A DNA stretch of 64,000 nt from Planctomycetota bacterium (GCA_965223505.1 CBDCWP010000010.1:128001-192000), one strand, 5' to 3'; counted from the stretch's first letter, positions 1,180 through 58,148 are shown. The notes: a model not told the origin generated them from the letters alone. Translations and numbers: made by a program.

Positions 1180-1785
1180 ATGTCCGGCGATCTCTTTACG
1201 CGCACCTTCGACCGTAGGGCGCGTACGCTCATTGCCACCGTCACCCTCTCAGCGATCTTCGGCCTTGGTTTCGGCATGTATTCGCTGTGGGGCGCCAACA
1301 TGGAGACCGGCTACGAACCGGCACAGCCGATTCCGTTCTCGCATGCCCTCATGGCGGGCAAGCACGAGATCGATTGCCTCTACTGCCACGGCAACGCCGT
1401 GAAGGGCGCGCACGCCGGCATTCCGACCGTCTCGGAGTGCATGAAGTGCCACAAGGAGATCCAGACGAAGGATGAAAAGGGCGAGCTCAAGCCGTCTCTC
1501 GCCATGCTGAACGACTACTGGGCCGAGAAGAAGCCCATCGAGTGGGTCAAGGTCCACGATCTGGCCGACTTCGTCTACTTCAACCACAGCCGGCACATGA
1601 CGGAGCAGGCCGGCTTGGAGTGCGCCGACTGCCACGGACCCGTCGAGACCATGGAGCGCGTGCGTCGCGTTCATTCGCTCAAGATGAGCTGGTGTCTGGA
1701 CTGCCACAAGCAGCCGGCGCCCGAGGGCGCACCCGCGCATCAAGAGACGCGCGCACCCATTCACTGCAGCACGTGCCACCGATAG
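1180..1785 (+). CDS. actA: Alternative complex III pentaheme cytochrome c subunit
   Basis: N-terminal TM helix, QPIPFSH motif, five CxxCH (CLYCH, CMKCH, CADCH, CLDCH, CSTCH), DFVYFNHSRH; ATG at 1180 chosen. Confidence 0.93.
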   Translation: MSGDLFTRTFDRRARTLIATVTLSAIFGLGFGMYSLWGANMETGYEPAQPIPFSHALMAGKHEIDCLYCHGNAVKGAHAGIPTVSECMKCHKEIQTKDEKGELKPSLAMLNDYWAEKKPIEWVKVHDLADFVYFNHSRHMTEQAGLECADCHGPVETMERVRRVHSLKMSWCLDCHKQPAPEGAPAHQETRAPIHCSTCHR

Positions 1786-1801
1786 GAGCCGACCGGACGA
1801 G

Positions 1802-4704
<2,903 letters not shown>

Positions 4705-53879: not shown

Positions 53880-54557
53880 ATGTTCATCAAGACGGCGCGG
53901 CGGTCTCATCTTGCAGTCTGTGCAATCGTGCTCGGCATGGCGCTCGGCGCGTGCGGCGGCGACGGAGACAACGGCGGCGGCGGGAGCGCAGGGGCCGATG
54001 GCGCCGCGTCACCCGACGAGCTCGTCAGCAAGATGCAGGTGGCGGTCAACAACGACGACTTTCCGGCCATGCTGCCGCTGCTGGTCCCGAAACAACGCGC
54101 GATGATCACCTTCGGCGTGTACATGGGCGCGGAGATGATGGTCGGCATGAGCACGAGGATGGCGGGGATGGGCGGCGACGAGGGGCAGGCCGCGGCCAAG
54201 AAGCTGAGTGACGACTGGTCCGCCATCAAGAAGCGGCACGGCCTTCCGGGGGACAAGGGCGCGAAGCCGGAGGGACTCGACACCGACGACAAGGATCAGA
54301 TGATCGAGGGCATGAACAAGCTATTGGGCCACGTGGACCACGCGGCGTTTCTGAAGGACGCGCTCGCGTTCATGCGCGCCAACAAGGACCCCGATGAAGA
54401 GGGCGGCGCGATGGACACCATGAAGGGCACGTTCAAGAACCTGAAAGTCGACGGTGAGAGCGGCACCGTCGAGCTGGAAAAAGACGACGGGACCGAGACC
54501 GTCGGCATCGTCAAGATCGACGGTCGGTGGTACGCCGACCTGAAGGACACGATGTAG
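53880..54557 (+). CDS. Hypothetical lipoprotein
   Basis: AAGGAGG RBS, lipobox LGAC, C-terminal KIDGRWY. Confidence 0.8.
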   Translation: MFIKTARRSHLAVCAIVLGMALGACGGDGDNGGGGSAGADGAASPDELVSKMQVAVNNDDFPAMLPLLVPKQRAMITFGVYMGAEMMVGMSTRMAGMGGDEGQAAAKKLSDDWSAIKKRHGLPGDKGAKPEGLDTDDKDQMIEGMNKLLGHVDHAAFLKDALAFMRANKDPDEEGGAMDTMKGTFKNLKVDGESGTVELEKDDGTETVGIVKIDGRWYADLKDTM

Positions 54558-54584: not shown

Positions 54585-54944
54585 TCACGGCATGAGATAC
54601 GCCGCGGCCGTGAGCACGGCCGCGGTGATCGACGCCTGGAGGTAGAGCCGGCGCGACTTCGCGCGTAGCGCGTCGCGCAACGCCTCGTCGTCGATCGCTT
54701 CCGTCTTGCCGTTCACCTCGCGCACACCCTGTGCGGCGCGCGCGACTCACGTGCCCGCCGCGGCCTGGAAGAAGCTCAGGCCCGCGACGAACAGCGGCAA
54801 GAACAGAAGCAGGCGCCAGGTCTTCGCGAACCCCTGCTGGTCGAACCAGAACAGGATCCCGCCGCAGACCAGGAGGATCACGAAGCCGCTCCACCAGCGT
54901 TTCGAGCGGCCCCCGCGGTCGAGATTGGTCGCGTTCTTGGACAA
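54585..54944 (-). CDS. Small membrane protein with in-frame UGA (codon 66), candidate selenoprotein
   Basis: Frame reads ...FFQAAAGT-UGA-VARAAQGVREVNG...AAVLTAAAYLMP; 48 of 53 codons after UGA end in G/C; hairpin follows; TTG start is a best guess. Confidence 0.72.
54719..54738 (-). promoter_or_regulatory. SECIS-like hairpin CGCACA-GGG-UGUGCG
   Basis: 6-bp stem (+2 bp after a bulged C); loop starts 18 nt 3' of UGA 54749-54747. Confidence 0.6.
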
Positions 54945-55001
54945 GGTCGAGCTCCCGCGCCAACGCGCTGCCGCCGGATTGCATCCTACACTTGCTCGGC
55001 C

Positions 55002-57164: not shown

Positions 57165-58148
57165 CTACAAGAACTTGGTCTTGAGCTTCTCGGCGATCTT
57201 CTGCGCTTCCTGGCCTGCCTTGGTGTTCTCGTACTTCTTCTTCGTCAGCGACTTGATGATGGCGTACTGCTTCTTGTAGTTCGACTCTTCCGCCATCTTC
57301 GCTTTGGCCTTCGCGAGCTTCTTGCTGGCATCCACCTCGAGCTTGAGCTCCTTGTCCTTCAGGATCTCCTTGGCGGCGGCCTGCGCCTGCTTGCCGTAGT
57401 CGTGCCCCTTGAACTCCTTGGCGACGCGCTCGTAGGCGAGGAACGCGTCGTACACGTTGCGCTCGCGCAGCGCCGCCGCCGCCTCCTCGAGCGAAGAGGT
57501 CGCGGTCCACTCCAACCAGGCCTTGATCTCGTTCGCGGCTTCCAGCTCGTCGCCTTCGACCTTTTCGCCCTCGATGGCCGCGTTCACCTTCTTGAGCGCG
57601 TCGGCGAACTTCTGCTTGCCGATGGCCTTCTCGACCTTCGAGAGCGACGCCGGGAACGCCGGAAGGAGCCGGATGCTCGCCAGGGCCTCCTCGATCATCT
57701 CGGTGGTGACGGACGCCGGGTGGTCCACGACGAGCACCTTGCCGCGCGCGTCGATCAGAACCGCCGAGGGGTAGCTGTTGCGGCCGTACGCCGCCATGGA
57801 GTCGGTTTTCTCGCTGATGATCGGGTGCTTCGCGTCGGTCTTCTCGATGAACGCCTCGATGCGCGATGCCGGTTCCTTCGAGATGGAGATGACCGTCAGG
57901 CCCTTGGGGCCGTACTTCTCGTGAAGCTCGTCCAGGTGACCCACCTGGTTCACACACGGGCCTCAGGTCGTTGCGAAGAGCTCGAGGAACACGACGCGCC
58001 CGCGCAGGTCCTCGAGGGTGACCGGGTCGGTGTTGAAGAACTCGTCGCCCTCGAAGGCGGCGGCGGGATCCCCGACCCCGGCGACGGCCGAGGTGCTGGA
58101 CAGGAGGAGAACGCCGAGGACGGCGCCTGCAACGGCGATCTTGCTCAT
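57165..58148 (-). CDS. Exported TlpA/AhpC-TSA-family redoxin with UxxC motif (in-frame UGA, codon 62), candidate selenoprotein
   Basis: Signal peptide, TLEDLRGRVVFLELFATT-UGA-GPCVNQVGHLDELHEKYGPKGL, cis-Pro YPSAVLIDARGKV, helical C-terminal domain. Confidence 0.9.
57932..57948 (-). promoter_or_regulatory. SECIS-like hairpin CCAGGUG-GGU-CACCUGG
   Basis: Perfect 7-bp stem; loop starts 22 nt 3' of UGA 57965-57963. Confidence 0.75.

Follow-up and report, generated by a model that had tools for sequence, protein, structure and literature searches.

UGA is decoded as selenocysteine (Sec) through an in-frame hairpin, a textbook mechanism, and in Escherichia coli fdhF the GGUC loop of this hairpin begins approximately 19 nt after the UGA. 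Most selenoproteins adopt a thioredoxin-like fold, and Cys exchanged for Sec at an aligned column constitutes a classic Sec/Cys pair. Links to selenium exist both for rhodaneses, which can carry the element, and for the DedA proteins, one of which affects selenite resistance. PF11127 (YgaP-like_TM, formerly DUF2892), known from E. coli YgaP as the two-helix membrane part joined to a rhodanese, is small, with an N/D-x-x-R-x-x-R-x-x-x-G motif at its N-terminus, two transmembrane helices, a conserved Cys just past a Thr at the end of helix 2, and an association with rhodanese. Described membrane selenoproteins, namely the putative mercuric transport (PF02411), YeeE/YedE (PF04143) and SO_0444 (NF033936) families, have Sec for Cys at or near a transmembrane helix. 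Altogether, 119 prokaryotic selenoprotein families with model accessions are compiled in Table 1 of a 2026 review (PMC13188914).

Here we analysed a window of 64,000 nt from a Planctomycetota bacterium, i.e., the whole stretch of DNA under study, with a G+C content of 67%. On its minus strand, between two plus-strand genes, a frame runs into an in-frame UGA and continues for 53 further codons, as the preliminary description had claimed and direct reading bore out (Table 1). The TTG is the sole in-frame ATG/GTG/TTG located 45-85 codons upstream of the in-frame TGA. Codon usage is of the same kind on both sides, with G or C in the third position (GC3) of 62/65 codons upstream and 48/53 downstream; counting confirmed the latter value and its five exceptions, GCA71, GGT73, GAA82, CTA93 and TAT116, the first two of which had already been singled out. 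Within the downstream segment GC3 reaches 0.91 in the frame of the gene vs 0.73 and 0.52 in the other two frames. We are highly confident, judging from the sequence, that the UGA at codon 66 is read as Sec within one gene for a 119-residue inner-membrane selenoprotein. In the proposed mechanism, SelB and tRNA-Sec would decode this codon with the assistance of a GC-rich hairpin situated in the coding sequence just 3' of the UGA, and the product would belong, as its Sec form, to a widespread and unnamed family of approximately 120 residues, composed of an N-terminal N-I-G-P-x-x-R-R-x-R motif, two transmembrane helices, an invariant T-C/U-V, a short helix and a beta-hairpin, and of a third helix that would re-enter the membrane.

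Table 1. Positions of the selenoprotein gene, its predicted parts, surrounding features and one fused relative
Feature	Position	Strand	Basis or remark
Selenoprotein CDS (predicted), 119 aa	54585..54944	-	TTG start, Sec codon 66, terminal TGA included
TTG start	54944-54942	-	
Terminal TGA	54587-54585	-	
Shine-Dalgarno-like GGGAG	54952..54956	-	7-nt spacer to TTG; read directly
Helix 1, residues 10-37, transmembrane	54834..54917	-	AlphaFold2 model
Helix 2, residues 41-63, transmembrane	54756..54824	-	AlphaFold2 model
In-frame UGA, predicted Sec66	54747..54749	-	T-U-V motif, end of helix 2
Most stable hairpin, candidate SECIS	54718..54745	-	11-bp stem, +2..+12 with +19..+29; loop GCACAG
Alternative hairpin CGCACA-GGG-UGUGCG	54721..54735	-	-7.0 kcal/mol; pair probability ~0
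Beta-hairpin, residues 74-83	54696..54725	-	AlphaFold2 model; basic segment after Sec66
Long helix 3, residues 87-117	54594..54686	-	AlphaFold2 model; C-terminal part is the third hydrophobic segment
ORF from in-frame GTG, 46 codons	54725-54585	-	
Terminator-like stem-loop with T run	54485..54504	-	~80 nt past the stop, inside the 3' end of the convergent gene
Divergent neighbour, 719 aa	55002-57161	+	
TlpA-like selenoprotein gene	57165-58148	-	UGA at 57965-57963
Fusion gene L098 (own locus)	1616-2980	+	~455 codons, two in-frame TGAs

The convergent plus-strand neighbour is a 225-aa gene of no family, and the divergent one encodes a glucose/sorbosone dehydrogenase (PF07995) that carries a cytochrome c domain at its C-terminus, its start lying 57 bp from that of the selenoprotein gene; neither neighbour gives a functional clue. 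The terminator-like stem-loop, found in a scan that returned one site vs 0.2 expected and matching the consensus only, is a possible transcript end. All-against-all clustering of the flanking ORFs at 153 loci revealed no gene neighbour shared beyond single lineages; an upstream esterase occurs in one planctomycete family and short-chain dehydrogenases in eight loci, neither of which is informative.

We then turned to the identity of the family. The window protein matched no Pfam or NCBIfam model, and when 79 family members were scanned against both collections, every hit stayed below threshold. None of the 119 families in Table 1 of the 2026 review fits a T-U-V three-helix membrane protein; its Pfam, NF and TIGR accessions are absent among the families of the 79 members (first 25 of 46 Pfam and all 25 NCBIfam), and entries with only cd or PTHR numbers were set apart by their description rather than by a model scan (PMC13188914). 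Passages on deep-Sep (PMC12013277) and in a 2026 preprint devoted to intergenic features deal with other families, and the main texts of the open full-text literature contain nothing relevant on a selenoprotein together with DUF2892 or on YgaP together with selenocysteine. Database names are limited to "hypothetical protein" or "uncharacterized membrane protein". The family, for which the preliminary description could offer no name either, is apparently undescribed and widespread in bacteria of many phyla.

Set against the described membrane selenoproteins, the window protein likewise has its predicted Sec for Cys at a transmembrane helix, but it has no sequence match to PF02411, PF04143 or NF033936, from which it differs in size, topology and motif. 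The features of PF11127 named at the outset are shared by the window family, which has beyond these a short helix, a beta-hairpin and another helix, its third; its motif reads T-C/U-V-x-L-A-A-R-G vs T-x-x-C-P/G-M in PF11127. The window protein gave no hit to PF11127 at E <= 10 (gathering score 25.3 bits), and a PF11127 search of the genome did not find the window gene at E <= 1 but found a true member elsewhere. Weak sub-threshold hits were obtained for 7 of the 79 members (best E 0.0011), and hhalign against an alignment of 15 true PF11127 domains from related genomes placed Cys on Cys with a probability of 4%. With this value, and with no member at the gathering score, we do not claim homology to the YgaP-like transmembrane domain. 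The true YgaP-like domain of the same genome (G000:C43:90769-90933, 39 bits) stands at the end of a longer open frame, in which it is preceded by a sequence (GGIEAY…) like that closing a rhodanese domain in several relatives.

An AlphaFold2 model computed with the family alignment (pLDDT 96.8, pTM 0.87) supports the 119-aa, approximately three-helix membrane protein that had been proposed. Helix 1 is preceded by the conserved N-terminal motif N-L/I-x-x-x-x-R-x-x-R, with N7 invariant and R16 present in at least 90% of the homologue alignment, and helix 2 carries a conserved WRL...F-Q-A motif that ends just upstream of Sec66. The predicted Sec itself sits in the turn before a short helix (residues 67-72), i.e., directly after a transmembrane helix as the preliminary description had it. 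Searches of the PDB gave a best E of 0.12 with a sequence profile, no match at E <= 0.001 by fold using Foldseek, and generic helical bundles only using VIA-align (best Z 7.2), and the absence of a thioredoxin fold, also part of that description, held up in these fold searches. The family is thus membrane-embedded and devoid of the fold that is usual among selenoproteins. Lys and Arg number five at the N-terminus (residues 1-16), one in the loop (residues 35-43) and eight after the Sec (residues 66-99); by the positive-inside rule, therefore, the N-terminus and the Sec-bearing segment, including the beta-hairpin, probably face the cytoplasm, and the selenol would be positioned at the membrane-cytoplasm interface. 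Four Cys forms (P0028, P0061, P0062 and P0080, and in part P0029 and P0084) have an extra N-terminal domain of approximately 60 aa with the pattern Y-x-CPxCG...H-T-x-x-H...CPKC, which is zinc-ribbon-like and matches no Pfam family at threshold; such a CPxCG...CPKC domain fits a cytoplasmic N-terminus.

The DedA-rhodanese selenoproteins (NF041203) are another described system with a connection to the family. A DNA scan across species (see below) uncovered 13 loci, closely alike and probably of one lineage, in which the present domain is fused to further domains; nine of them run past the first domain, four are cut by the end of the locus and four more are broken or incomplete. At least five fusion genes are complete (L080, L084, L098, L120 and L139), and in these the present domain with its TGA forms the N-terminal part and is followed by a VTT/DedA domain (PF09335, E 6e-15) and then by a rhodanese domain (PF00581, E 3e-12) whose active-site loop LYCSU includes another TGA, giving a protein of approximately 455 aa with two predicted Sec residues. 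The second TGA stands in L-Y-C-S-[TGA] and is followed by the hairpin CAGCGCC-CGGGU-GGCGCUG and then by 50 codons. The best NCBIfam match of the rhodanese is rhodanese_LYCAU (NF041203), with 79 bits where the cut-off is 115. A word-index protein search returned no longer, fused homologue at E <= 1e-5, which is weak evidence; the fusions came from the DNA scan. The Sec of the window protein is a different residue in a different domain from that of the DedA-rhodanese proteins, and rhodanese and VTT domains are absent from the window protein itself, being present only in its fused relatives. The decoding mechanism is ordinary, and what is apparently new is the family and its fusion partner; through the fusion with a second Sec, two sets of proteins without an assigned role each gain a definite partner that can be tested.

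With regard to function, we propose that the protein, anchored in the membrane, would accept or relay sulfane sulfur or selenium delivered by rhodanese-type sulfurtransferases. We tentatively regard such a membrane relay with rhodanese-type enzymes as the likeliest function, and we favour it because one lineage fuses the domain to DedA/VTT and rhodanese with a second Sec, which suggests a sulfur/selenium relay without proving it. On the other side of the balance, the fusion is probably limited to that single lineage, the window's genome holds no rhodanese above the NF041203 cut-off (a probable rhodanese fused to the true YgaP-like domain is encoded elsewhere in it), no gene neighbour is conserved across lineages, and the similarity to the YgaP-like transmembrane domain is not significant. 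A more specific version, namely a two-selenol relay in which the family and the DedA-rhodanese selenoprotein would shuttle sulfane sulfur or selenium between the cytoplasm on one side and the membrane or periplasm on the other in soil and sediment bacteria, is possible but rather doubtful. If true, it would supply a membrane step that bacterial sulfur/selenium trafficking has so far lacked, as well as a first functional handle on DedA-rhodanese proteins. The explanation as a whole, within which the function is the tentative part, we hold to be strongly probable.

Handling of a soft metal or metalloid ranks second after the relay, and we consider it unlikely. Here the selenol would bind or move Hg, Cu, As, Se or Te at or across the membrane in a MerT-like manner, with no sulfur relay involved. 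The single invariant Cys/Sec at the membrane interface would suit this role, as would a Cys just before the N-I-G motif, which is present in 117/155 motif-bearing Cys-form database proteins vs 35/121 Sec forms and would provide two soft ligands; the 2026 inventory, moreover, contains membrane selenoproteins of this kind, the SO_0444 Cu/Zn efflux transporter and a putative mercuric transport protein (PMC13188914). However, the window protein lacks this N-terminal Cys and matches neither PF02411 nor any other metal-transport model, and among the neighbour clusters no metal-resistance genes adjoin it. We keep the sulfur/selenium relay as the preferred function.

The genome is equipped for Sec insertion, all four components named for checking in the preliminary description being present: selA (437 bits, C8:37088-38197) adjoins selD (338 bits, G000:C8:38315-39232), which has an in-frame TGA of its own in G-G-[TGA]-A-A-K, and these are accompanied by selB (336 bits) and a 99-nt tRNA-Sec (selC) with the anticodon TCA. 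TGA is an ordinary stop in this genome, where it ends 378/1028 long high-GC3 ORFs.

To follow the column at codon 66, the read-through protein was used in an exhaustive, profile-free homologue search, which returned 333 cluster representatives at E <= 0.001, mostly of approximately 120 aa. We aligned 78 of the best 150, i.e., those of about 100-130 aa with a near full-length match, excluding fragments and N-terminally extended forms. Cys occupies the column in 77 of these 78 database homologues, in agreement with what the preliminary description expected of a Sec site, and Trp in one. Genomes were searched in six frames with stops read through and counted. In 61 related genomes there were 20 matches (E <= 0.001, the window's own gene included), 19 with exactly one TGA and one with none. 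The family profile, run against 40 genomes of the window's order, likewise gave one TGA inside 19 of 20 matches; the matches at this level were confined to the window's own family (18/28 genomes), and the 11 genomes of the sister family in the same order had none with this profile. In a sample of the phylum (301 genomes), 27 genomes had a match, 20 with one TGA, six with no stop and one with TAA, and in the translations the TGA always lay within T-[TGA]-V. Five of the six stop-free matches were translated, giving four Cys and one Ser, and the sixth (G204) is partial. In the Ser form (G218:C18:37848-38195) the codon at the Sec/Cys column is TCG and the hairpin is absent.

The distribution beyond the phylum was surveyed by scanning one genome per species with a codon-neutral pattern of Q-A-x3-T-[TGH]-V-x-L-A-A-R-G. 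At least 118 loci were found, with 103 TGA, 11 TGC and 4 TGT among the matches listed; as the pattern requires the residues most typical of Sec forms, the ratio 103:15 is no estimate of prevalence. One TGA locus (L173) is by its appearance probably a chance match, and L091, L121 and L148 diverge downstream as if frameshifted. Record titles, tallied by hand, were available for 80 scan loci, of which 71 are TGA loci. Gemmatimonadota names account for 23 of these, Methylomirabilota, Rokubacteria or NC10 for 17, "Deltaproteobacteria" or Binatia for 12, Chloroflexota for nine and Acidobacteriota for three, with one each for Poribacteria, Verrucomicrobiia, Zixiibacteriota, Ignavibacteria, Spirochaetaceae, Planctomycetota and an unclassified bacterium, making at least 11 phylum-level labels. 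By these titles the Sec form is common in poorly known groups, i.e., Gemmatimonadota, Methylomirabilota/Rokubacteria, Binatia, Chloroflexota and Acidobacteriota. A cultured organism with a Cys-form member, of use for genetics, is Melghirimyces thermohalophilus DSM 45514 (L110, NZ_FMZA01000006.1).

Conservation of the protein runs on past the TGA and profiles match through to the C-terminus. The region after the UGA, another point raised in the preliminary description, is conserved in related genomes, and a profile built from Cys-form homologues matches the window gene over positions 6-122 across the TGA with 132.5 bits. These data bear on a reading in which the UGA is a true stop, so that a two-helix peptide of 65 aa would be made and the 46-codon GTG ORF would be a separate small gene or be left untranslated. 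Annotation appears to speak for it, since 58 of the best 120 clusters, all 65-92 aa in length, end in Q-x4-[TVIL], exactly at the TGA, and an in-frame GTG occurs eight codons after the UGA. However, those eight codons encode V-x-L-A-A-R/Q-G, the most conserved motif of the family, the Cys forms are continuous proteins of approximately 120 aa, profiles score across the TGA, the frame and its GC3 continue unchanged, and a hairpin goes with the TGA forms; taken together, these make a true stop very improbable. The Sec form stands in databases as "hypothetical proteins" of 67-72 aa that stop at the Sec codon; a model of the family would correct what would then be an error made systematically in annotation, and more selenoproteins would be counted in these groups.

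Decoding of the UGA as Trp, Cys or Gly, through a reassigned code or near-cognate read-through, is as improbable as a true stop. The one homologue with Trp at the column (P0098, …QAQDET-W-VALAQRG…) can be cited in its favour, and its Trp may stem from a TGA that was translated with a TGA=Trp code. Against it stand the use of TGA as a stop throughout the genome and at the end of this very gene, the full Sec machinery including a Sec-type selD, the Cys found at the column elsewhere, and the specificity of the hairpin for TGA forms. Least credible of all is a pseudogene, in which a Cys-form gene would have acquired its TGA by a nonsense mutation of recent date or through an assembly error: TGA is one base from TGC or TGT, but it stands at the same column in more than 100 species, the downstream frame is intact with a GC3 of 0.91, and the TGA is retained in contigs (not reads) of two other runs, those from the second run of the same sample having no differences over 54608-54947 and a 151-nt contig from a different study having six, none at the TGA. 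Sequencing error, which the preliminary description had marked for checking, is thus countered by independent contigs, and Sec remains the preferred reading of the codon.

We next examined the hairpin across the family. For 30 Sec forms of the window's phylum a gap-free alignment was obtained over the 39 nt that follow the TGA, and a helix of +12..+18 with +24..+30 closes a loop GGUNN starting at +19; 80% of cells pair, five of the seven pairs are changed on both sides, and the observed covariation exceeds 500/500 shuffles. A larger set comprised 124 distinct Sec-form sequences (125 distinct 45-mers minus L173), for which the scan pattern had fixed three bases of the 5' arm and none of the 3' arm. 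Here the core hairpin, a 5-bp stem of +14..+18 with +24..+28 and the loop GGUNN at +19, is paired in 89% of cells, again with covariation above 500/500 shuffles. A register slid by 2 nt still pairs in 82% of cells, nearly as well, because the arms consist of (CG)n, and structure and coding are entangled because the arms are two Arg codons that the protein also conserves. The covariation across homologues that the preliminary description had called for is present but modest.

A comparison between Sec and Cys forms is the cleaner test of the hairpin. At least four consecutive pairs from a GG-starting loop at +19 are formed in 109/127 Sec forms vs 5/19 Cys forms; codon +8 ends in G in 121/127 vs 11/19; and pair 15-27, in which both bases are third positions, is formed in 116/127 vs 9/19, with the qualification that the 127 Sec forms include L173 and that the sequences are related, so that these counts overstate independence. 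Five Cys forms (L077, L099, L106, L124 and L144) have a full Sec-type hairpin, and these may be recent Sec-to-Cys conversions. No SECIS family of Rfam matched at permissive thresholds.

The window's own copy departs from the family pattern. At codon 72 it has CAG (Gln), in contrast to the CGC (Arg) of most Sec forms, and the consensus register is broken because of this substitution, which is normal for the family (Gln in 16/79 aligned members at this position). The most stable fold is instead the 11-bp stem (-22.4 kcal/mol, pair probabilities 0.88-1.0), which takes essentially all of the predicted ensemble; the 50-nt stretch after the UGA has a z of -2.43, with 3/200 shuffles folding equally well. 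The loop of this fold does not start with GG. In the family the apical loop begins with GGU at +19, about where the GGUC loop of fdhF begins; the candidate hairpin of the window copy begins in frame right after the UGA, as in fdhF, with another register and loop. The preliminary description had advanced CGCACA-GGG-UGUGCG as the SECIS. This hairpin exists, with its loop starting 18 nt after the UGA, and it contains the rare GGT codon of Gly73, retained in the window copy as the counterpart of the conserved GGU loop start. However, it is mutually exclusive with the dominant 11-bp stem and the family hairpin lies in another register; in view of its computed stability (Table 1), the 6-bp fold is probably not used here, and the proposal that it serves as the SECIS is disfavoured. 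A second selenoprotein gene in the same window, of the TlpA-like thioredoxin fold, has its UGA in …ELFATT-U-GPC…, followed by a 7-bp stem with a GGU triloop.
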